From contig CAVTWK010000005.1 in the NCBI GenBank assembly GCA_963738485.1, forward strand, positions 64,549 through 128,548: a stretch of DNA of 64,000 bases, read 5' to 3'. Shown piece by piece: positions 19,618 to 62,468 of this stretch. Position 1 is the stretch's first letter. Each line of letters opens with the position of its first letter. A program made the translations under genes and the position numbers. The stretch comes from an uncultured Acidobacteriota bacterium (GTDB taxonomy: Bacteria; Acidobacteriota; Vicinamibacteria; Vicinamibacterales; SCN-69-37). The notes beneath the pieces are model-generated. The model had not been told where the DNA came from. It saw only the letters and a list, made by a program, of their open reading frames with translations, and made no database searches.

Positions 19618-21414
19618 TCAGATTGACTGCACGATGTGTCGGACCGGCGACAGCCGGTGACGGGTCGCCGACATGGCGGCCTCGACCGCGAGCGTGCCAT
19701 CCGGCGGATACCAGTTGCCGCCGATGCACCGGCCGCCGCCGAGGATCACGAACGGATCGAGCCCGGGACACCCGCTCGTCGGCGGCGCGACCGGCGGCGT
19801 CGGCGTGCCGGGAGGCGTCAGTCCGGGTGGGTACCAGTTCCCGCCGACGCAGGTGCCGCCACCGAGGATGGCGAACGGGTCCGCTCCCGGGCACCCGCCG
19901 GGCGATGGTGTGGGCGGCGCGGGCACCGGTAGCGTCGGCGGCGTGGGTGGCACTGGCACACTCGGCGCGCCCGGCGGCGTGATGCCCGGTGGGTACCAGT
20001 CGCCGTTGGCGCAGGTGCCGCCACCGAGGATGGCAAACGGATCCGGTCCGGGGCAGGTGCTCGGCGCCGCTGTGGGAGGCGCCGGGGTCGGCGTGGGTGG
20101 AGTTGGCGGGATCGGCGCGGGTGTTCCGGGAGGTGTGATGCCGGGTGGGAGCCAGTTGCCGTCGGCGCAGGTGCCGCCGCCGAGGATGGCGAACGGATCC
20201 GCCCCGGGGCAGCTCGCCGCCTCGTCGAGGACGACCTGATGGATGGCGCCGTCGACATAGTTCAGGACGTAGAGTTCGCCGGCCGCGTCCACGCCGAACG
20301 CCGATGGCGAGGAGGCACCGGCGACTAGCGAGGCCGTGTGGTCTTGCAGGTCGCTGGCGATTGCCGGATCGAAGCCCGCGTTGAGGGCGAGTGACCACAC
20401 GCGGTTCGCGGCGAAATCGCCGAAGAAGTATCGCCCGCGGTAGCCGGCACCGAGCGCCGTGCCGCGATAGATCACGCCACCGGTGATGGACCGGCCCTCG
20501 GCATGCGAGTACTCGAACACTGGATCGGTCAGAGGCGTGGCGAAGGGTGGCAGCGACGTGACGTGGTCGTGGCTGCCTTCGCGATTGCGCCAGCCGTAGT
20601 TGCGTCCGCCGACGCCGGCCGGCTCGTAGTTCACTTCTTCCCACTGCCCTTGACCGACGTCGCCCATGATCAGGCCGCCGGTGCCGCCGAACGCCGGGTC
20701 ATCGAACGACCATCGCCACGGGTTTCTCACACCGAACGCCCAGATCTCGCCGAACACGCCGCTGGTGGCCGCGAAGGGGTTGCCAGCCGGCACGTCGTAG
20801 CCCTCGGGATCCGAGTCGGGCACAGACGTGTCGAGCCTCAGCATCTTGCCGAAGAGCGACAGCGGATGCTGGGCCAGATGGGACGGGTCGTTGGAGCTGC
20901 CGCCGTCGCCCACGCCGATGTAGAGGTAGCCATCCGGCCCGAACGCGAGGTGTCCGCCGTTGTGGTTGCCGAACGACTTGGGCAGATAGGGCAGTCCACC
21001 GGGCCAGACGAAGTCCTTGCGGGTGGTCGGATCCGCCTGCAACGGGTCGCTGCCGGACCGGACGAACCGTGCGACGACGATGTGACCGGATGGGTTGTTG
21101 AAGTAGACGAATACGCGCCCGCTCGTCGCGTGATCGGGCGCGAAGGCCAGTCCGAGCAGTCCCTGTTCGCCGCTGCTGGCGACGCTGATCGAGAGGAAGT
21201 CGTGGGCCTGGAGGACGCGGTTCCTCAGGACCCGGACGCGGCCGCCCTGCTCGACGACGAACTGCACCGCCGGATCGACGGGATGCTGAACGAAGGCGAC
21301 GGGGGCGGAGAGTCCGTTGACGACGAACTCGGCGCGCAACTGAGCGAAGCCCCGATTGGGCGGGAGGAGGAGCGCGAGGGCGACGAGCACGAGCCGGACG
21401 CGGCTCCGCAGCAT
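19618..21414 (-). CDS. Secreted PQQ-dependent (GSDH-type) sugar dehydrogenase with 4 C-terminal Cys mini-modules
   Basis: Signal peptide '[19 protein letters not shown]'. '[23 protein letters not shown]', '[11 protein letters not shown]' and 'NYGWRNREG' are GSDH motifs. It is a close paralog of the adjacent gene along the whole length. Confidence 0.85.
19699..20211 (-). repeat. Coding repeats: 4 copies of the 24-aa two-cysteine module (paralog 2)
   Basis: The four copies are [72 protein letters not shown] and [24 protein letters not shown], with P/T/A-rich linkers. Confidence 0.9.
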
Positions 21415-25521: not shown

Positions 25522-25587
25522 CACATCACATCACCACATCTCACATCACCACATCACCACATCACCACATCACCACATCACCACATT
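25522..25587. repeat. Tandem 8-nt repeat (CATCACCA, ~8 units, 5 perfect) in the nuoE-nuoF spacer
   Basis: tcacatca catcacca catctca (catcacca)x5 catt, read directly from the sequence. It ends 4 nt before the nuoF ATG (25591). Confidence 0.95.
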
Positions 25588-28515: not shown

Positions 28516-28827
28516 ATGCTGCCCGAACCCACGCTCAACTCGTATCTGCTGCTCTCGGCCGTGCTCTTCGCGATCGGGACGGCGGGCGTGTTCCTCCGGC
28601 GCAACCTGATCACGATCCTGCTCTCGGTCGAGATGATGCTCAATGCGGTCAACCTGACGTTCATCGCCGTGGACCGGTTCCTCGGCACCGTTGACGGCCA
28701 GATCATCGTCTTCTTCGTCATGACGGTGGCCGCGGCCGAGGCGGCCGTCGGGCTGGCGATCATCATCGCGCTCTTCCGGCACAAGGAATCGCTGAATCCG
28801 GACGTCTTCACGACGCTGAAGTGGTGA
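28516..28827 (+). CDS. nuoK: NADH-quinone oxidoreductase subunit K
   Basis: 'LLLSAVLFAIGTAGVFLRRNLITILLSVEMMLNAVNL...AAAEAAVGLAIIIALFR'. Confidence 0.95.
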   Translation: MLPEPTLNSYLLLSAVLFAIGTAGVFLRRNLITILLSVEMMLNAVNLTFIAVDRFLGTVDGQIIVFFVMTVAAAEAAVGLAIIIALFRHKESLNPDVFTTLKW

Positions 28828-28831
28828 CCGC

Positions 28832-30863
<2,032 letters not shown>

Positions 30864-30867
<4 letters not shown>

Positions 30868-32507
30868 ACATGCCCCTCCTGACCCTGCTCATCGTGCTGC
30901 CGGTCGTCGGCGCCCTCCTGGTGCTGCTGCTCGGTCGCGGCCGCGATGGCCTTTCGCGCCAGCTCGGACTGGGCGTGTCGCTGGTCACCTTCGCGGCGAG
31001 CCTCCTGCTCTGGTGGCAATTCGACCCGGCGTCTGCGGAGTACCAGTTCGTCGAGCGGCTGTCGTGGCTGCCGGACTTCGGGGTCTCCTACCACCTTGGG
31101 GTGGACGGCATCAGCCTGCTGCTGGTCGTGCTCACGACGTTCCTGACCCCCATCGCGCTCCTTTGTTCGTGGGAGTCGATCGACGACCGCGTGCGCGAGT
31201 TCACGTTCTTCATGCTCTTCCTCGAAGCGGCCATGATCGGCGTGTTCGTCTCGCTCGACCTGTTCCTGTTCTACATCTTCTGGGACGCGATGCTGATTCC
31301 GATGTATTTCCTCATCGGGATCTGGGGCTACGAGCGCCGCATCTACGCCGCCATCAAGTTCATGCTCTACACGATGGCGGGCAGCGTGCTGATGCTCATC
31401 GCCATCATCTGGATCGCCTACTACCACCAGTCGGTCACCGGGGTGCCGAGCTTCGACCTGCTCGACCTGCTGGCGCTGTCGATTCCGGCCGGCGTCCAGA
31501 CGTGGCTGTTCCTGGCGTTCGCCGTGGCCTTCGCGATCAAGGTCCCGCTCTTCCCGTTCCACACGTGGCTGCCGGATGCCCACGTCCAGGCCCCGACGGC
31601 CGGGTCGGTCATCCTCGCCGGCGTACTGCTGAAGATGGGCACCTACGGGCTGCTGCGCTTCGCCTTCCCGCTCTTCCCGGCCGCCGCGCTCGAGTTCGCG
31701 CCGTGGATCGCGCTGCTCGCGGTCATCGGCGTCGTCTACGGCGCGCTGGTGGCGATGGTCCAGCCGGACATGAAGAAGCTGGTGGCCTACTCCTCGGTCA
31801 GCCACCTCGGCATCGTCGTCCTCGGCATCTGCGCGCTGAACATCAACGGCGTGCAGGGCGCCGTCTACCAGATGCTGGCGCACGGCATTTCGACCGGCGG
31901 CCTGTTCCTGGTGGTCGGCATGCTGTCCGATCGACGGCACACCAAGCTCATCGCGGAGTACGGCGGGCTCAAGGCGGTCACGCCGAAGCTCGTCGGCGTG
32001 TTCCTGCTCATCACGCTGGCGTCCGTCGCGCTGCCGGGCACCAACGGGTTCGTCGGCGAGTTCCTGATTCTCGTCGGCGCCTTCGACGGCGTGTTCGCGA
32101 ATCACCGGCTCTACACGTCGATCGCCGCCACCGGCGTGATCCTCTCGGCGGTCTACATGCTGTGGATGTTCCAGCGCGTCAACTACGGCCCGATCACCAA
32201 CGACAAGAACCGCGGCCTGCGCGACCTCAGCCCGCGCGAGTGGGTGGTCATCGCGCCGATCTGCGCCATGGCGGTCTTCATGGGCGTCATGCCCGGCATC
32301 TTCCTGAAGCCGATGGAGCCAGCGGTGAAGAAGACCGTCGAGCGCATCGTCGGCACGAACCGGCCGCTCAATGCCGCGGTGCCCATCCCGCCCGGGACCG
32401 TCGCCCGCGGTGACGTCACCGCGCTGGAGGCCGGCAGCGCGGCCGCCGGGACGTCCGCCATCCCGTCTGCGCCCGTCGGTGCGGCGAACCCAGGGAGCGG
32501 TCGCTAA
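30864..32507 (+). CDS. nuoM: NADH-quinone oxidoreductase subunit M
   Basis: 'HLGVDGISLLLVVLT...FFMLFLEAAMIGVF...PFHTWLPDAHVQAPTAGSVILAGVLLKMG...KKLVAYSSVSHLG'. ATGA overlap with nuoL. Confidence 0.95.
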
Positions 32508-33944
32508 TGTTGAACGACATCATTCCAATCATCCCGGTCCTGATGGTCGTGCTGTCGGCCTGCGCCGTGCTGCTGGCCGAGGCTTTCCGCCGCGAGCACG
32601 ACTGGATGCCCGTGGGGCTGCTCGGCCTGGTGGGCGTCCTCGGGGGCATCGCCTCGTCCGTGCCACTCTGGAACCGCAACGCGGTGGCGTTCGGCGTCAT
32701 CACCGTGGACAACTTCACGGTCTTCTTCAACATCCTGCTCTGCGGGATCGGCCTGCTGACGATCCTGATCTCGTCCGGCACGGCCGAGCGCGACAAGCTG
32801 CCGACGGGGGAGTACTACGCGCTGATGCTCTTCTCGCTGGCCGGCATGATGCTGATGGGCGCGACGAAGGACCTGCTGGTCATCTTCATCGCGCTCGAGA
32901 TCATGTCGCTTGGGGTGTACGTGCTGACGGCCATCAAGCGCACGAGCGAGGCAGGCGCGGAAGCCGGCTTCAAGTACCTTCGTGCTCGGTGCGTTCTCGA
33001 GCGCGTTCTTTCTCTACGGCATCGCCATGACCTACGCGGCGACCGGCACGACCAAGCTCGACGAAGTGGGCATGCGTGTCGCCAGCACCGCCCAGGACCC
33101 GAGCGTGCTGCTCGTCCTCGCGATGGTCCTGCTGCTCGTCGGCTTCGCCTTCAAGATCTCCGCCGTGCCGTTCCACATGTGGACGCCAGACGCCTATCAG
33201 GGCGCGCCGACGCTGGTGACCGGCTTCATGTCCACGGGCGTCAAGGCGGCGGCGTTCGCCGCGTTCATCCGGGTCTTCCTGTCCGCGCTCGAGCCGCTGC
33301 GCCTCGACTGGCTGCCGGTCGTCTCGGCGCTCGCTGGCCTCACGATGATTCTCGGCACCGTCGTCGGCGTGGCGCAGACCAGTGTCAAGCGCATGCTCGC
33401 GTACTCGAGCATCGCGCACGCCGGCTACCTGCTCGTCGGCCTGGTGGCCGCCAGCAGCGCGGGCAAATCCGCGATTCTCTTCTACCTGGTGGCTTACGCG
33501 GTCACCAATCTCGGCGCCTTCGGCGTCCTCGCCGCGCTGTCCACCGCGGATCGGCCGCACGATGACGTGCGCGACTTCGCCGGCCTGTGGAAGGAACGCC
33601 CCGGCATGGCCGGGCTCCTGACGGTGTTCCTGCTCTCGCTGGGCGGCTTCCCGCCGACCGTGGGCTTCGTGGCGAAGTGGTACATCTTCAACGCGGCCGT
33701 GCAGGAGAACCTGATCGCGCTGGCCATCCTCGGCGTGCTGACGAGCGTGGTCTCGGTCTTCTTCTATCTGCGCATCGTCGTGCAGATGTACATGACGGAC
33801 GAACACGCCCCGGGGCATCGCCCGACCGTTCCGGCGCTCGCGCTCACCGGCATCGTGCTCGCCCTCGTCGCGGTCTTCTACCTCGGCGTGCTGCCGGGAC
33901 GACTCATCTCCATCTCCGCAGCGGCAGTCGCGGCGATCTTCTGA
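32507..33944 (+). pseudogene. nuoN: NADH-quinone oxidoreductase subunit N, one frame break (~32972-32982)
   Basis: '...LEIMSLGVYVLTAIKRTSEAGAEAGFKY' continues in the 32982 frame as 'VLGAFSSAFFLYGIAMTY...PFHMWTPDAYQGAPT...'. Confidence 0.9.
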
Positions 33945-48749: not shown

Positions 48750-49636
48750 CCGGTTCCGCCCGCGGCCGTTCCCGCACTACGCCGCGCGTCGCTGAGGTCC
48801 CGGAACTGACGCCCAGGTCCCGGAGGCGGCGCCCCTTCCTGGCGTTGGTCGTCGTGGCGGTGATGGCCTCGTCCCTCGCGGGCTGTGCCGTTCGGCGGTA
48901 CACCGTGCCGACGGGCCCGTGGCAACCAGCGACCGACGCCTCGGTCGCCTGGCAGGAAGCGACGGCCGACTGCGCCGGCCTCCTGGCCCTGCGCGCGTCG
49001 GTGCGGCTCTCCGGCCGAGTCGGTCCCCAGGCGATTCCCGGATTCCGCAGCGCCACGCTCGGCGTAGCCGTCACCGCCGCCGACCAGGTCGGCCTCGAGG
49101 CGCGCCACTCGGGTCAGTTGCTGTTCAGGCTCGGGGGGACGGCCGATCGCACGGTGCTGTTCTGGAGCGAGGGCCCGCGCACGCTCACGGCCCCGGCCGC
49201 CGATCTGGTCGATGCGCTGATTGGCGTCAAGGTCACCCCGCGCCGCCTGCTGGCCATCCTCGCCGGGTGTGCCGGCACCGGCGGTCCAGTCGATCGCGCC
49301 GAGCGCAGCGGCGGCGACCTCCGCGTGACCACTCCCGACGCCGTCGTGTACCTGTCGCGGGTCGCCGGCGCATGGCGCGTGCGCGCGGCGCGCCTCGAGG
49401 GCATGTACGTCAGTTACGACCTCAGCCGCGGGCGGGCCGCGCCCGCGGCCGTCCGCATCGACTCTCTCCCGGAGGCCTCGCTCGTCGTGGCGCTGTCCCT
49501 GCGGCTCGTGGATGTCGAGCACAACCCCGAACCGGCGCTGCCGCCGGCCGCGTTCGCGGTCAACGTGCCGCCAGAGGCCTTGCCGATGACGCTCGACGAA
49601 CTGCGATCCTGGCGCAGCGGAGGCGAACTCCGATGA
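48746..49636 (+). CDS. Outer-membrane lipoprotein, LolB/DUF4292-like (positional equivalent of lolB upstream of ispE)
   Basis: Lipobox 'SSLAGC'. 'TAPAADLVDALIGVKVTPRRLLAILAGCA' resembles the LolB '[27 protein letters not shown]' segment. The synteny TPR-lolB-ispE-tRNAGln-prs-ctc-pth is known from beta/gamma-proteobacteria. GTG start overlaps the upstream stop. Confidence 0.55.
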   Translation: MTGSARGRSRTTPRVAEVPELTPRSRRRRPFLALVVVAVMASSLAGCAVRRYTVPTGPWQPATDASVAWQEATADCAGLLALRASVRLSGRVGPQAIPGFRSATLGVAVTAADQVGLEARHSGQLLFRLGGTADRTVLFWSEGPRTLTAPAADLVDALIGVKVTPRRLLAILAGCAGTGGPVDRAERSGGDLRVTTPDAVVYLSRVAGAWRVRAARLEGMYVSYDLSRGRAAPAAVRIDSLPEASLVVALSLRLVDVEHNPEPALPPAAFAVNVPPEALPMTLDELRSWRSGGELR

Positions 49637-50527
49637 GCGCGGCGCGATCGCTGGTGCTGCGACCGTCGGCCAAGGTCAACCTCACGCTGCGCGTAGGGCC
49701 GCTGCGGGCCGACGGGTTCCACGATGTGCGAACCCTGATGCAGTCGATCGCGCTCAACGACACGTTGACGATCTCGCCGCGTCGCGGGCCGTTCAAGTTC
49801 GAGACGCGCGCGCCCGGCATCCCGTCCGATCGGACCAACCTCGTCTGGCGTGCCGCCGAGGCCCTGTGGCGGTCGCTCAAGCGCCCGGGCGATCCGCGCG
49901 ACGTGCACATCCGCCTGGAGAAGCAGATTCCGTCGGCCGCTGGACTCGGCGGGGGCAGCGCGGATGCCGCCGCCGCGCTCGTCGGACTGAACGTGGCGTG
50001 GGAGGGCAGGCGGTCGCGGTCCGACCTGATGGAGCTGGCCGCTGAACTCGGGTCGGATGTGCCGTTCTTCCTCCAGGGGGGCACGGCCCTGGCCTCCGGG
50101 CGCGGCGAGGAGATTCTATCCCGTCGATGACGTCGATCGCCTGGGCCTGGTGGTCATCAAGCCGTCGTTCGGCGTCCCCACGGCCGATGCCTACCGATGG
50201 CTCGACGAGGACCGGGCGGCCGGGCACGCCGACGGCCGGGCCGTGCCGCGCGTGGCCCTGGGCTGGGCGGCCGGTCCGGTCGCCCTGGTCAACGACCTGC
50301 AGGCGCCGGTGGGGCGCCGGCACCCGGGCGTGGCCGAGATGCTGGAGGCCTGCCAGCGGGAAGGGGCACGGGGGGCGGCCATGACCGGGAGCGGATCCGC
50401 GGTATTTGGCGTGTTTTCGGAAAGTTCCGCCAGAAATGCCGTCCGCCGCCTTGCCCGCCCGGACTGGCTGGTGCTCCTGACCAGGACCCTGACCAGGCAG
50501 GAGGCTGCCCGCCGCCTGGGCCTGTGA
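49633..50527 (+). pseudogene. ispE: 4-diphosphocytidyl-2-C-methyl-D-erythritol kinase, one frame break (~50110-50118)
   Basis: 'AKVNLTLRV...DGFHDVRTLMQSI...KQIPSAAGLGGGSADAAAAL...GSDVPFFLQGGTALASGRGEEI' continues in the 50057..50527 frame as 'YPVDDV...VVIKP...TGSGSAVFGVF'. Confidence 0.9.
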
Positions 50528-57490: not shown

Positions 57491-57707
57491 CGCGCCTGAT
57501 TCTAACCGCCAGGCCGCCCTTCCCTCGGCCTCGATCGGAGCCCCGCCTGCACCAGGCTAACCCTTGGTGCTCTTGCTCCATCGATCGGTGGCAGCTCTCT
57601 TTCCGATTTCCACGCGGCCTCCGGCCCTCTGCCCCTCCGTGGTGAACCCGATCTCCGCATCTTCGTGGCGAAATCCGTCGGCCTCGCACCAAGCCCCTCG
57701 CCCGGCT

Positions 57708-59090
57708 ATGCTTGCCCTAAGCCGCATGCGTGCACCTCGAACCGTCTTTGCCTGTCAGGAATGCGGCGCCCAGTCCCCGAAGTGGCTGGGCAGGTGCCCG
57801 GACTGCAACGCGTGGAACAGTTTCGTCGAGGAGAAGCCACCGGCCGCGGTGCCGGAACAGCGCGGCGCGGCCACGCCGATGGGCGGGCAGAAGGCGCGCT
57901 TGATTGCCGACGTCGAGGCGACGTCCGCCGAACGTCTCACGACTGGCATCAGCGAGTTCGATCGTGTGCTCGGCGGTGGCATCGTGCCCGGGTCGCTTGT
58001 GTTGCTCGGCGGTGAACCGGGCATCGGCAAGTCCACGCTGCTCCTGCAAGCCGCGTCTCACTTCGCCGCGACCTTCGGTCCCGTCCTGTACTGCTCGGGC
58101 GAAGAGTCTGAGCACCAGATCAAGATGCGTGGCGATCGCCTCGGCGTGCGCCCCGACAGGTTGTATCTGCTCGCCGAGACCTGCGTCGAACGCCTGCTCG
58201 AGGAAGTGGATCGTCTCAAGCCGGCGCTGCTCATCGTGGACTCGATTCAGACAGTCTTCTCGCTGAAGCTGCAGTCGGCGCCTGGCAGCGTCAGCCAGGT
58301 CCGACAGGCCGCGACTGATCTGCTGTTCACGGCCAAGGGCCGGAACCTGCCGACGATTCTGGTAGGCCACGTCACCAAGGACGGCGCTCTGGCCGGCCCG
58401 AAAGTGCTCGAGCACGTCGTGGACACGGTGCTGTACTTCGAGGGCGAACAGCACCACGCGCACCGCATCGTCCGCGCCGTCAAGAACCGCTTCGGCGCGG
58501 TCAGCGAACTCGGCGTGTTCGAGATGACGGGCGAGGGGCTCTTGCCCGTCCCGAACCCGTCGAAGCTGTTCCTGGCCGAACGACCCGCCAGCGCGCCCGG
58601 CTCCGCGGTGCTTTCGACGATCGAGGGCTCGCGCCCGATCCTGGTCGAGGTGCAGGCGCTCGTCAGCAGCGCGACCTTCGGCAACGCGCAGCGCACGGCC
58701 AACGGCCTCGATCGCAGCCGCCTGACGCTGCTCCTCGCCGTGCTCGACAAGCGCGTCGGCCTCAGCGTGGCGACTGACGACGTGTTCGTGAATGTGGCCG
58801 GCGGCCTCAGCGTGGACGAGCCGGCCGCCGACCTGGCTGTCCTCGCGGCCGTGGCCTCGAGCATGCGCAACCGCGTCATCGCCTCGGACGTCGTCGTCTT
58901 CGGGGAGGTTGGACTGGCAGGTGAGGTGCGGTCCACGACGCAGGCCGCCTTACGCGTGCGCGAGGCCGCGCAACTCGGGTTCAAGCGCTGCGTCCTTCCG
59001 CATGGCAACCTCGCGGCGAAGGACGTGCCCGCGGGGATGGTCGTCACCGGCGTCAAGACAGTGGCAGAGGCGATTGATGAACTTATGTAG
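57708..59090 (+). CDS. radA: DNA repair protein RadA (Sms)
   Basis: Zinc finger 'FACQECGAQSPKWLGRCPDCNAWNS', Walker A 'GGEPGIGKSTLLLQ', 'KNRFG', and a Lon-like C-terminal domain. An alternative start is ATG 57726. Confidence 0.95.
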   Translation: MLALSRMRAPRTVFACQECGAQSPKWLGRCPDCNAWNSFVEEKPPAAVPEQRGAATPMGGQKARLIADVEATSAERLTTGISEFDRVLGGGIVPGSLVLLGGEPGIGKSTLLLQAASHFAATFGPVLYCSGEESEHQIKMRGDRLGVRPDRLYLLAETCVERLLEEVDRLKPALLIVDSIQTVFSLKLQSAPGSVSQVRQAATDLLFTAKGRNLPTILVGHVTKDGALAGPKVLEHVVDTVLYFEGEQHHAHRIVRAVKNRFGAVSELGVFEMTGEGLLPVPNPSKLFLAERPASAPGSAVLSTIEGSRPILVEVQALVSSATFGNAQRTANGLDRSRLTLLLAVLDKRVGLSVATDDVFVNVAGGLSVDEPAADLAVLAAVASSMRNRVIASDVVVFGEVGLAGEVRSTTQAALRVREAAQLGFKRCVLPHGNLAAKDVPAGMVVTGVKTVAEAIDELM

Positions 59091-59091
59091 C

Positions 59092-59247
59092 GGGTCCGAC
59101 AGGTGCGGCGGGTACGACGGGTACACGGGTGCGACAGGTAATCAGGTACGCCGGGTACGCGGGTACGCCGGGTACGCGGGTACGCCAGGTGCGTCAGGTA
59201 CGCCAGGTACTCAGGTACGCCGGGTACGCGGCTACGGCAGGTACACG
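59092..59247. repeat. Array of ~18 tandem 8-9-nt units, consensus (G)GGTACGCN
   Basis: ...ggtacgcc gggtacgc gggtacgcc gggtacgc gggtacgcca ggtgcgtca ggtacgcca ggtactca ggtacgcc gggtacgc... Confidence 0.9.
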
Positions 59248-59266
59248 GAAGGACCGAGGAGCAGCG

Positions 59267-61193
59267 ATGAAGGTCCGAGGCGTCATGGTCATCGGCAACG
59301 TCGTCGTGTCGGGGCTGGTGCTTGCGGCGCAGGCGCCGGCCCCAGTGGTGCCGGGCGCGCCGCCGCCGCAGGCGACGTTTCGTGCGGGCGTAGATATCGT
59401 ACCAGTTCGACGTCACCGTTCTCGACCGTGACAGGAAGCCCGTGCGCGGACTGACGGCCGCGGACTTCACCGTCATCGAAGACGGCAAGCCGAGGCCCAT
59501 CGTCGCGTTCACGCCGGTGGATGTGCCGGGACCCGCGCCAGTGTCCGCGCCGTGGATACGCGAGGTGGCGCCAGATGTCGTGTCGAACGCGACCGACACG
59601 CGACGACTAGTCATGATTCTGTTGGACGACGCCATCTCGAGCCCGGCGTACGGCGGACCGCCGGTCTCGCGGACCATTGCGCACAAGGTGGTCGATGGCC
59701 TCGGCCCAGACGACTTGGCGGCCATCGTGTTCACGCGGATGGGCAATGCGCAGAACTTCACCGCCGATCGAGCCGCCTTGCGACGCGCGATCGACAGGTT
59801 CGCACCCAAGATCCCGGCCGACCCAACAATCGCCGCCGTGGCTGGTCCGCCTCTGGCGTGTAGCAACAATCACGGCGTCGGCTGCAGCGTGCCTCAGGTT
59901 GCCCTGGCGGCACGTGCCCTGCTCAACGCCGCGGCTGGGCGCAAGGTGCTCGTGTACGTGAGCCCTGGCGGCGTGCCCGCGATGGACGGCACGGACCGAG
60001 ACGACCTCAATCGCCTGGTGGAGGTGGGCGACATGCTCCGCGACGTGCAGCGCACAAACCTGACGGTCTATTCCTTCAATCCAGACGGCATGATGAGGGG
60101 GGCGTTCTCCAACCCGCATGGGGCCCGTTGGCTGGCGGAGAATACCGGCGGGCGCGCGATCACCGACACCAACAGGCCCGAGGAGCACGTCGAAGCGGTG
60201 ATGGCAGAGAGTTCGCACTACTACCTGTTGGGCTTCCAGGCGGCTGACCTCGACAGGGGCGCGGCTGACTTCCGACGGGTCAAGGTCCACGTCAATCGTC
60301 CCGGCCTCGAGGTGCGGGCGCGCAGCGGATACTTCCCGCCGGCCGTGGCCAAGCCGTCGCGAAAGGCGCCACCTGCGCCCATTGACGCCGCGGTCGCGGG
60401 GGCGCTACCCAGATCGGATCTGGCCCTGGGCCTGCACGTGCTGCCATTCGCCGCGTCGAACGGCAAGGACGCCGAGATCGCCATCGTCGTGCGCGTCACC
60501 GAGACAGCCAACGGTGACCCTGCGATCGCGCCAGGTCAGCCGTGGCCACGGCGCAACGCGCGAGTGCTCGCCGTGGCCTACGACGACGGCTACAGCGTCA
60601 AGGGATCGACGAACAAGACGATGTCGTTTCGCCTGCAGCCTCCCGCCGGGCGCGGCGCCGTGCGATCGCTCACTACGAGTTGTTGTCCAGGCTGCCGATC
60701 AAGCCCGGTCGCTACGAACTGCGCGTCGCCGCCGAGGTGGATGGTCGCGTAGGGAGCGCCTACACGTCGGTCGAGGTGCCCAACTTCGCGAGAGACGCGC
60801 TCTCCCTCTCCCCGATCGCGGTCGTCGCGCACACCTGCCATCGCGACGGCGCCGAGCGATGCGCTGCACGGTCTCCTCCCCATCGTGCCCACCGCCGTGC
60901 GCGAGTTCGCTCAGACCGATCGCCTCGAAGCCTTCATCCGCGTCCACCAGCGAGGGAACCGCCCGGCCAGCCCCGTCGCGCTCACGTCCACCATCACCGC
61001 CGAGGACAACCGGCAGGTGTTCAGCGAGACCTCCCGCCTCGCGGCCGACACGTTCACACGGGAAGCCGGTACCGATTTCCGTCTCGGACTGCCCCTCACG
61101 CGCCTGACACCCGGGCAGTATCTGCTCACGATTCACGCCACAGCCGCTCCGGCAGCCTCAGTCACCAAGACCCTCCGCTTCACGGTGCGCTGA
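59267..61193 (+). pseudogene. VWFA-related acidobacterial-domain protein (TIGR03436-like), frame broken about three times (~59400, ~60660, ~60835)
   Basis: A signal peptide, then 'FRAGVDIV'. Next comes 'FDVTVLDRDRKPVRGLTAADFTVIEDGKPRPIVAF... LVMILLDDA...' (vWA-like). Then 'YELLSRLPIKPGRYELRVAAEV'. Finally '...TPGQYLLTIHATA...TLRFTV'. These pieces are spread over four frames. Confidence 0.8.
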
Positions 61194-61195
61194 GC

Positions 61196-61378
61196 CGCAC
61201 CCGGCGTACCTGGTGTACCTGGTGACCTGACGTACCCGGCGCACCTGCCGTACCTGTGTACCCGGCGTACCTGGCGTACCCGTCGTACCTGTGTACCGGT
61301 CGCACCCGAGCACCCGTCGTACCCGGGTACCTGCCGTACCTCTGTACCTGGCGTACCCGCTGTACCCAACGGACCCGT
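61196..61378. repeat. Array of ~21 tandem 8-9-nt units NGCGTACC(C), the reverse complement of the 59092-59247 array
   Basis: ...ggcgtacc tggtgtacc tggtgacc tgacgtaccc ggcgcacc tgccgtacc tgtgtaccc ggcgtacc tggcgtaccc gtcgtacc... Confidence 0.9.
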
Positions 61379-61382
61379 TACA

Positions 61383-62468
61383 ATGGCTTTCGTGATGCGC
61401 GGCTTCTACCTCGTTCGTCTCGTCTTCATCATCGTCGTCGCCTACTCGGCCTCGCTGATCGAGCCGATCGTGGGACCGGTGTGGCTGAATGCGTTGCTCG
61501 GCATGGGCGTCGGTCTGCTGATCGTCGTCGCCGAGTCGCGCTTGCGCGATGCGGCGGTGCCGAACATCCTCGGCGCGCTCATCGGATTTGGCGTCGGATT
61601 GCTGATCTCGCGGACGATGGGCGAGGCGCTGTTCTGGGCGGACACGACCAGCCCGAAGGTCCGGTTCCTGCACAGCCTCATCGTCTACATCCCGCCGTAC
61701 CTCGGCACGGTGTTCGGCGCGCGCAAGGGCGAATGGCTGGAGCCGGCGAAGTTCGCCTCGCTCTTCCGGGACGCGCGGCCGCAGCGGCGCTATCGCATCC
61801 TCGACACGAGCGTGATCATCGACGGCCGCGTGGCGGACATCGTCGAGACGGGCTTCCTCGATGGCACCCTCGTCGTGCCGCAGTTCGTGCTCAAGGAACT
61901 CCAGTTCGTCGCGGATTCGTCCGACCCGCTCAAGCGTAATCGCGGCCGCCGAGGCCTCGACGTGCTGCATCGCATCCAGAAGATGTCGGGCGTCGAGGTC
62001 ATCATCTCTGACGTCGATTTCCCGCAGGTCAAGGAAGTGGACCTCAAGCTCATCGAGCTGGCGCGCACGATGCTCGCGCGGATCGTCACCAACGACTTCA
62101 ACCTGAACAAGGTCGCGCAGCTGCGGGGCATCGAGGTGCTGAACATCAACGAGCTGGCCAACGGGTTGAAGCCCGTCGTGCTGCCCGGTGAGGTGATGCA
62201 TGTGTTCATCCTGAAGGAAGGCAAGGAGTACAACCAGGGTGTCGCGTATCTCGATGACGGCACCATGGTCGTCGTTGACAATGCGAGGAGCCGCATCGGC
62301 CGGAACCTCGACATCGTGGTCACGAGCGTGCTCCAGACCACGGCGGGCCGGATGATCTTCGGCCGGCACATCGACAACTCTTCGAGCGGTGACGCCTCGG
62401 GCAAGTCCGAGTCCCGAGTGGACCGCGACGAGTCCGGCCGGCGGCCCCGGCCGGCGGCGCAGGGCTGA
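61383..62468 (+). CDS. PIN/TRAM-domain membrane-anchored protein (YacL-like)
   Basis: N-terminal TM segments, a PIN domain '[38 protein letters not shown]...[12 protein letters not shown]', and a TRAM-like C-terminus. It follows the radA neighbourhood, as in many bacteria. Confidence 0.8.

Follow-up and report, generated by a model that had tools for sequence, protein, structure and literature searches.

Inverted GGTAC arrays around an acidobacterial VWFA-domain gene are probably members of a lineage-specific intergenic repeat family

Introduction

Seen in isolation, a gene bracketed by two mirror-image arrays of a short repeat raises the question of what the bracket does for the gene. Such an arrangement lies in a stretch of 64,000 nucleotides from an uncultured Acidobacteriota bacterium (Vicinamibacteria; Vicinamibacterales; SCN-69-37), which corresponds to positions 64549-128548 of contig C5 in assembly G000 and is called the window in the following. 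There, a gene coding for a VWFA-domain protein (59267..61193, + strand) is preceded by ~18 units of the form RGGTACNNN, each of 8 or 9 nt, and followed by ~20 units of their reverse complement, hereafter arrays A and B. A first-pass annotation of the window had drawn attention to this bracket and listed recombination-mediated inversion of the gene, slippage-based variation in length, G-quadruplex-dependent control and arrays of binding sites as its possible roles. The answer that we favor, with a probability of about 0.8, is that both arrays are unexceptional copies within a lineage-specific family of dispersed, strand-asymmetric intergenic repeats, and that the bracket is a by-product of the way in which these repeats are placed; it would then be neither an invertible cassette nor a G-quadruplex switch for the gene. 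That the arrays constitute a switch built for the VWFA gene is very unlikely.

Two arrays forming a long inverted repeat

The mirror-image arrays described in the first-pass annotation are real, and so is the long degenerate inverted repeat that they form. Array A (59093..59248, + strand; entry C5+123640) is a polar element of GGTAC 9- and 8-mers whose head lies beside the stop codon of radA. It opens two bases past this TAG and consists of ~18 units with a GGT(A/G)C core, the first of which, GGTCCGACA, occupies 59093-59101, while the last core is found at 59240-59244. The order of its units is GGTCCGACA GGTGCGGCG GGTACGACG GGTACACG GGTGCGACA GGTAATCA, followed by ~17-nt repeats that include ~2.5 near-identical copies of the 17-nt unit GGTACGCCGGGTACGCG. 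Array B (61194..61375, - strand; entry C5-840130), with ~20 units, is a polar element of the same type in reverse complement: its tail abuts the TGA of the VWFA gene, starting at the first base after the stop, and its head (61367-61375) lies beside the promoter region of the next gene, which codes for a PIN/TRAM-domain protein. Read on the minus strand from this head, its units are GGTCCGTTG GGTACAGCG GGTACGCCA GGTACAGA GGTACGGCA GGTACCCG and so forth. Tandem Repeats Finder scores array A at 99-180 and array B at 108-134. The inverted arms (59086-59229 and 61239-61382) are 78% complementary over 144 nt, the best stretch reaching 88% over 52 nt.

Arrays of this kind far exceed what chance controls yield. 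Genome G000 contains 19 runs in which at least six exact GGTAC cores follow one another at intervals of 7-10 nt, whereas 52 of the 60 permutations of the GGTAC word searched in the same way gave no run at all. The permutations with a non-zero count are sub-words of the GGTAC array or of a second family of GTAGCCC heptamers, the latter being the reason why the controls CGTAG, GTAGC and GGCTA were not empty. Read backwards, the GGTAC pattern had no match in 41 genomes. At G000 C1:1314400-1314460 and elsewhere, arrays of the GTAGCCC type (CCGTAGCCCGTAGCCCGTAG...) lie immediately next to a GGTAC array, on its tail side.

A polar repeat family with a fixed order of units

When arrays are counted from four cores upwards, ~78 of them are found in the 4.46 Mb of the G000 assembly, which comprises 9 contigs and has an estimated completeness of 62%. 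Successive cores are spaced by 9 nt (n=368), by 8 nt (n=178) or, where one degenerate unit is skipped, by 17 nt (n=65), and the number of units per array ranges from 4 to >40. The arrays are nearly all intergenic, 61 of the 78 overlapping called open reading frames (ORFs) little or not at all. The distribution was surveyed with a four-unit GGTAC pattern in 41 genomes, 25 of which belong to the same taxonomic family (24 genera, G000 included) and 16 to other families of the order. Arrays are present in 15 of the 25 genomes of the family (15 of the 24 genera, G000 counted), while the four-unit pattern was found in 0 of the 16 other families. A core RGGTAC(G)NC is kept across the 15 genera and its variable letter is specific to the genome: units read GGTACGACR in G001, G004, G012 and G017 (GAC), GGTACGCCR in G013 (GCC) and GGTACGTCG in G019 (GTC).

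Most copies share an ordered head, in which the units GGTCCGCCR, GGTACGGCR, GGTACRYCR, GGTACAGR (8 nt), GGTGCGRCR and GGTACYCG (8 nt) follow one another; past the head, 9- and 8-nt units alternate with a period of 17 nt over a run of variable length. This head order is common to 33-47 copies, and both arrays of the VWFA locus are among the 33 copies in strict register. The shared order implies that the copies are related along their length and did not originate from independent octamer slippage. New copies would arise by the copying of a common template, and the runs of identical 17-mers suggest that arrays subsequently grow locally, by slippage or duplication. The longest array of the family (G000 C6:571238-571591, ~354 nt), in which a normal head is followed by ~18 near-identical 17-nt units GGTACGACGGGTCCTCG, is the clearest case of recent in-place expansion. 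Local slippage, as proposed in the first-pass annotation, or duplication is also evident in the 17-nt copies of array A, but the arrays lie outside the ORF and outside the interval between ribosome-binding site and start codon. A hairpin within the head (CCGCCG-GGTA-CGGCGG) was considered as well: its halves pair in the consensus, yet many of the pairs are broken in individual copies, and it is not claimed here.

Placement relative to neighboring genes

Arrays that occur randomly with respect to genes, an outcome considered in the first-pass annotation, are not what a scan of the genome reveals; instead, array heads are tied to genes. On gene calls based on ORFs and GC content at third codon positions (GC3), the head lies at a median distance of 15 nt from its 5' neighboring gene and the tail at a median of 151 nt from the 3' gene, the nearer gene being on the head side in 43 arrays and on the tail side in 18 (p=0.002). 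Within 40 nt of the head, the stop of a same-strand gene is found 35 times and the start of an opposite-strand gene 11 times. Relative to a background of 19% for either type, arrays are over-represented in convergent spacers (23 of 61) and under-represented in divergent ones (6 of 61). As the heads occupy the outer edges of a spacer, inverted pairs are nearly always of the (+,-) type: within 2 kb, genome G000 contains 11 (+,-) pairs and a single (-,+) pair. The same (+,-) layout is also seen in G001, G012, G015 and G017, and it dominates in G001, G012 and G017. Array A follows the sense-after-stop mode of placement and array B the antisense-before-start mode. Head-out, tail-in placement from both sides of a spacer thus generates a (+,-) bracket as a by-product. 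The idea that the arrays are a device specific to the VWFA gene therefore finds no support, given that they are two members of a family of ~78 with a fixed placement relative to the outer genes.

A further regularity concerns the stop codons beside the heads. Beside 39 arrays, a clean, high-GC3 ORF terminates no more than 38 nt from the first core; 27 of these ORFs have TAG as their stop, 11 have TAA and only one has TGA (38 of 39 being TAG or TAA), compared with 59% TGA among the stops of the genome-wide gene calls (p=3e-14). The stop usually lies inside a unit-like word, namely (G)GTAGACCA, (G)GTAGATCA, GTAGCG or GTAACG. Array B, on its own strand, is likewise preceded by GTAA-CG, the GTAA ahead of its head being supplied by the complement of the TTAC that runs into a TACAAT box. 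These head-adjacent stops are native, since the C-terminus and the TAG of radA are unchanged in relatives devoid of arrays, and the same is true of efp, whose array is present only in G000. The bias may be specific to the head variant of G000. It could have arisen because GTA(R) microhomology seeds the copying, because certain targets are preferred, or because a stop-free array behind the leaky UGA codon is selected against. Taken together, the ordered head, the polarity and the stop bias narrow the candidate mechanisms to microhomology- or target-directed copying, selection against read-through, and a GGTAC-binding factor.

The radA-PIN/TRAM spacer and the bracketed gene

In all 20 relatives in which both genes are readable on one contig, radA and the PIN/TRAM gene are adjacent and separated by only 4-160 nt. 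The block of 2.29 kb between them (59093-61375) is found only in G000 and is missing from the same spacer in each of these 20 relatives. Judged by this comparison, the spacer is ancestrally short. The spacer of G012, a genome from a sister genus, reads TAG, then GGTACGC(GGTACGACA)3, ~50 nt and GTACCCGCC GTGCCCGTC GTACCCG, followed by ATTAGAAT (in short form: TAG, GGTACGC(GGTACGACA)3...GTACCCGCCGTGCCCGTCGTACCCG, ATTAGAAT), and therefore holds a small head-out, tail-in (+,-) pair without a gene. In G004, a minus-strand array precedes GTTAGAAT, and in G008 there is a single unit. The most economical account of these spacers would be that an array pair, or two independent arrays, belong to the spacer itself and that the gene sits between their tails.

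An alternative, which we hold to be decidedly unlikely, is that a composite mobile cassette with terminal inverted repeats, heads outward, brought the VWFA gene in, or that the center of an array palindrome was a fragile landing pad that captured it. The absence of the block from all readable relatives is what such an acquisition predicts, and so are the outward heads with their near-symmetric flanks (GTAG-CG-GGTCCG, and GTAA-CG-GGTCCG on the other strand) and the exact fit of the gene between the tails, its ribosome-binding site starting 7 nt past array A and array B starting right after its TGA. The gene itself is also a divergent paralogue without a close relative elsewhere: it is one of ~30 TIGR03436 paralogues, is single-copy at the nucleotide level, and encodes a protein at most 45% identical to its best relatives and at most 34% identical to proteins of the metagenome contigs scanned. 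Near-identical contigs were found neither by exact-protein look-ups with the PIN/TRAM protein nor by the metagenome scan with the VWFA protein. A recent duplication of the VWFA gene was rejected, as no near-identical copy exists and its paralogues reach at most ~70% nucleotide identity over short stretches.

Several observations nevertheless speak against a cassette. In G012, the pair at the same site encloses no cargo. The radA and efp junctions show no sign of a target-site duplication, and the flanks of the VWFA block, TAG-CG and CG-TTAC, are not direct repeats. The 1.95 kb between the arrays occurs only once in G000, and no transposase or integrase was found within 9 kb. Moreover, similar brackets, their arrays tied to the stops of the outer genes, hold quite ordinary content. 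For instance, the housekeeping gene rsmH of G000 is bracketed by a + array on the stop of its left neighbor and a - array on the stop of its right neighbor, and in G001 (C8:241528-243237, L071) a 423-aa ORF lies between a + and a - array whose heads are likewise tied to the stops of the outer genes. Finally, most arrays (~56 of 78) are solo. At L071, GGTTGCGACAGGTTTGTAGCA is common to both heads, and it is within this word that the outer gene on either side has its TAG stop.

The three frame breaks that the first-pass annotation reported in the VWFA gene are present in the assembly (~59408, 60655-60664 and 60825-60831). As proof of a pseudogene they do not suffice, as conserved genes of the same contig are also frame-split, among them NuoL-like, NuoN-like and IspE-like (GHMP kinase) genes in the window (28826-30864, 32507-33905 and 49636-50524). 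Both rpoB and rpoC, by contrast, are unbroken. Set against a relative of 99% completeness, 29 conserved genes showed 6 frame switches in 35 kb, those of the NuoL-, NuoN- and IspE-like genes included, which points to assembly indel errors at a rate of ~1 per 5.9 kb. Three breaks in 1.9 kb amount to ~9 times this rate, so that genuine decay of the VWFA gene is plausible. The breaks may thus be assembly indels or real decay.

Inversion, phase variation and G-quadruplexes

With respect to the proposed switches, the arms of the bracket are inverted and 78% complementary over 144 nt, and the copies of the 17-nt unit indicate that slippage happens; these features would fit a segment in which recombination between the arrays flips the VWFA gene, or in which the number of units switches its expression. 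Efficient RecA-dependent exchange, however, usually needs ~20-30 bp, and the longest exact inverted match at this locus, 16 nt, is below that. No recombinase gene was detected among the neighbors by profile searches, as the first-pass annotation had already noted, the neighbors being housekeeping genes. A flip would also place the VWFA gene antisense between two co-directional housekeeping genes. As for the number of units, the arrays do not have the position of a contingency locus: array A and the ribosome-binding site downstream of it are 7 nt apart, so that a change in unit number leaves the reading frame unshifted, and array B lies between the stop codon and the TACAAT box. In addition, arrays of the family are associated with a wide variety of genes, efp, radA and rsmH among them. 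Inversion by recombination is therefore unlikely at this site, and an invertible or phase-variable segment of either kind is an extremely improbable reading of the locus.

The G3-N5-6 spacing that had been noted for both arrays is confirmed only in part. Array A contains one canonical motif (GGGTACGCGGGTACGCCGGGTACGCGGG, 59153..59180, + strand; GGG-N5-GGG-N6-GGG-N5-GGG), which is the only canonical G3-type G-quadruplex motif of the two arrays, array B having none. This motif speaks for a model in which the G-rich strands (the coding strand upstream and the template strand downstream of the VWFA gene) would fold and thereby modulate transcription or translation, and so does the closest class of repeats described so far, the heptamers of Xanthomonas and Nostoc, which forms G-quadruplexes in vitro and obeys the same placement rule (PMC4692102). 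Against such control stands the composition of the family as a whole: a canonical motif is found in only 20 of the 78 arrays; the core is preceded by G in 52% of the units and by A in 43%, the latter thus starting AGG; the commonest longest run of GGG units per array is 1-2, and four units are not favored; and GGG units alternate with AGG units in relatives. As far as can be read from these sequences, G-quadruplex formation is not a maintained property of the GGTAC family, and quadruplex-dependent control is quite improbable.

Possible roles of the arrays

Since neither switch is probable, the question becomes what the arrays could do at gene ends in general. Single arrays fold no better than shuffled sequences (z = 0.4, 0.9, -1.9 and 1.3). 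If arrays A and B were part of one transcript, the predicted gain from pairing between them would be -142 kcal/mol, compared with -18 +/- 4 for shuffled versions of B. Hairpin-plus-T sites resembling terminators number 5 in 20 kb of the window, compared with 5.7 +/- 2.5 in shuffles; as they are not above the shuffled level, long array hairpins are plausible substitutes for terminators. Simple consensus scans detected no promoter or terminator in 58900-61700, and an Rfam search (E<=1) returned only two sub-threshold chance matches, both outside the arrays. We tentatively suggest that the arrays act as modules of RNA or DNA structure in 3' untranslated regions (UTRs) and inter-cistronic spacers, where paired arrays could zip into very long imperfect hairpins. 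Such hairpins might terminate or insulate transcription and shield 3' ends in a genome in which no canonical hairpin-plus-U terminators could be detected. Solo arrays may for the most part be neutral or selfish DNA; alternatively, they may be bound by a GGTAC-recognizing factor.

The last of these possibilities can be taken further, to an array of binding sites. A multimeric protein specific to the family would recognize the phased GGTAC cores, repeated every 8-9 nt, either in DNA or, as GGUAC, in RNA, and the arrays would act through this protein, for example a nucleoid protein or a factor involved in termination or acting on 3'-UTRs. The core kept across 15 genera next to a genome-specific letter, the fixed order of the head units, and the presence of AGGTACGAC in the stem of a REP-like hairpin family of G000 (REP, repetitive extragenic palindrome) are all consistent with recognition of the sequence; so is the ordinary folding of the single arrays, which argues that the conservation is not due to self-structure. 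On the other hand, no candidate protein was identified, the number of units varies widely, and homogenization of units within a genome is equally expected from the copying or gene conversion of selfish repeats. On balance, we consider the binding-site array an unlikely explanation.

The REP-like hairpin family mentioned above has ~38 copies of GGGGTCGTACCTyGmyyGCCGnrAGGCAGGTACGACCCC, and CTAGACA comes after many of them. The array word AGGTACGAC and its complement make up the 12-bp stem (GGGGTCGTACCT...AGGTACGACCCC), and several copies adjoin the tails or heads of GGTAC arrays. Examples are found at G000 C6:122880-122930, C9:580600-580650 and C2:410720-410770.

A wider proposal would be that the family runs a sequence-specific system that installs polar GGTAC arrays after UAG and UAA, not UGA, stops, where they would serve, singly or zipped into head-out, tail-in hairpins, as the main 3'-end and insulator modules, the palindrome centers acting as fragile landing pads for the capture of new genes such as the VWFA paralogue. 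We regard it as unlikely. If it were true, it would involve both a GGTAC-recognizing factor and a rule of targeting or selection linked to the stop codon, neither of which has been described for bacterial repeats.

Points that weigh against the preferred reading

The view of arrays A and B as ordinary family members in a by-product bracket has to be set against several observations. Firstly, compared with each of the relatives examined, the 2.29-kb block is inserted as a whole, and its heads point outward, which also fits a cassette with terminal inverted repeats. Secondly, array B departs from the majority rule of placement, as its head faces a gene start and it lies antisense after the TGA of the VWFA gene. 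Thirdly, the maintenance of the GGTAC core across 15 genera while the spacer letters vary hints at sequence-specific machinery or a binding factor, which a neutral or purely structural view leaves unexplained. Furthermore, the TAG/TAA bias is weaker in relatives (8 of 15, a small sample) and not clearly different from expectation there. Lastly, the gene calls behind the placement statistics are crude and the assembly carries indel errors.

Genes and signals at the locus

Upstream of the bracket, radA (57699..59090, + strand; start codon uncertain) codes for the DNA repair protein RadA/Sms (TIGR00416, 589 bits) and ends with its native TAG at 59088-59090. The VWFA-domain gene belongs to the acidobacterial TIGR03436 family (145 bits against a cut-off of 81). 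It starts with an ATG at 59267, preceded by a GAGGAG ribosome-binding site (59256-59261) that begins 7 nt past the tail of array A, and it stops with the TGA at 61191-61193. On the other side of array B, 3 nt beyond its end, the spacer contains a -10-like TACAAT box (61379..61384, + strand), 7-10 nt upstream of the likely start of the PIN/TRAM gene, of which it would be a promoter element. This gene (61395..62468, + strand) codes for a YacL-like membrane protein with Pfam PIN and TRAM domains. Its start is likely 61392 or 61395: in the ORF that opens at 61383, residue 5 is the first to align with relatives. The protein has orthologues in 24 of the 26 genomes searched, with 62-80% identity in 24 relatives. 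A TAnAAT box (TACAAT, TAGAAT or TAAAAT) lies 7-10 nt before the conserved PIN/TRAM start in most members of the taxonomic family (window 61379-61397; L010-L033). This position suggests a leaderless or near-leaderless PIN/TRAM transcript, for which no -35 element is recognizable. The genes of the neighborhood are prs, pth, rpsF, rpsR, rplI, dnaB, alr, radA, the PIN/TRAM gene and lhr.

Two other repeats of the window deserve mention. An octamer array of CACATCAC x 7.6 (92% matches; 25527-25586) is unrelated in sequence to the GGTAC family, and a 162-nt tandem repeat in 2.6 copies (75% matches, Tandem Repeats Finder score 444; 19800-20208) is GC-rich and may be coding.

Significance and comparison with known repeat systems

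Considered alone, the locus matters little, since the bracket marks no switch and the VWFA gene is one of ~30 paralogues. The family to which its arrays belong is of wider interest: with it, the 6-9-nt intergenic repeats, a class that is still poorly understood, come to include members from the Acidobacteria, the fixed order of units at one end points to template copying over independent slippage, and the arrays give a handle on the organization of gene ends in GC-rich bacteria that have no classical terminators.

Among repeats of larger unit, the REP sequences with their composite BIMEs (bacterial interspersed mosaic elements), and in particular the GTAG-tagged REPs (Di Nocera et al. 2013, PMC3733652), are alike in their high copy number and extragenic position, mostly downstream of coding regions in unidirectional or convergent spacers, and in the presence of inverted neighbors able to fold into larger structures. 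They also carry a GTAG-like word at one end; in the GGTAC arrays, GTAG precedes 13 of 39 heads, and TAG or TAA precedes 38 of 39. In contrast to REPs, whose unit is a 20-40-bp palindrome, a GGTAC element is a tandem array without a significant fold of its own. Mobilization by a REP-associated tyrosine transposase (RAYT) of the IS200 type was rejected as well: the three PF01797 (Y1_Tnp) genes of G000 are 8 kb or more away from the nearest array and have flanks without GGTAC units, and the presence of Y1_Tnp does not track that of the arrays (14 of 15 genomes with arrays, 18 of 26 without). Beside one Y1_Tnp gene, a short array of GGTCTGACCC-type 10-mers was observed (G000 C2:129330-129480), and this word recurs behind a REP-like hairpin at C1:284560.

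Compact (+,-) pairs also resemble miniature inverted-repeat transposable elements (MITEs) and composites with long terminal inverted repeats, such as Correia/NEMIS and ERIC, in that they are located at gene ends, could be co-transcribed and could fold as RNA. Unlike these elements, GGTAC arrays have no target-site duplication and no fixed length, no cognate transposase was found for them, and most copies are single arms. The TAACTGA heptamers of Beggiatoaceae, Cyanobacteria and Bacteroidetes (MacGregor 2015, PMC4679880) are comparable as abundant intergenic direct repeats at gene boundaries with a patchy distribution among related genomes, and the role proposed for the heptamers, that of post-transcriptional protein-binding sites (PMC4679880), is one considered for the arrays too. 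However, those heptamers occur in 2-6 copies, mostly a few nt upstream of starts, whereas GGTAC arrays mostly follow stops, contain 4 to >40 units and possess an ordered head.

The closest known repeats are the GGGAATC heptamers of Xanthomonas and the GGGGA(C/T)T heptamers of Nostoc/Anabaena, which are of the short tandemly repeated repetitive (STRR) type (PMC4692102). They share with the GGTAC arrays the short unit, the strand asymmetry and G-richness, the dispersed, non-coding distribution, the formation of inverted pairs, and the variation in length and sequence between related genomes. The placement is similar too: the Xanthomonas GGGAATC and Nostoc GGGGAYT repeats lie nearer to the 5' ORF whatever the orientation of that ORF, on the coding strand after or overlapping its stop or on the non-coding strand before its start (PMC4692102), and they are depleted between divergent ORFs (PMC4692102, Rehm et al. 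2015), as are the GGTAC arrays with their 5'-ORF proximity, their position at stops and starts and their scarcity in divergent spacers. The differences are that the GGTAC units measure 8 and 9 nt instead of 7 nt, that their copies possess a conserved, ordered head followed by a 17-nt super-repeat, that neither GGG tracts nor a preference for four units are kept, that the association with TAG and TAA is strong in G000, and that the hosts form an acidobacterial family. The GGTAC arrays are thus a structured 8/9-nt variant of the known class of 6-9-nt G-rich intergenic repeats, distinguished by their ordered head and their association with TAG/TAA stops.

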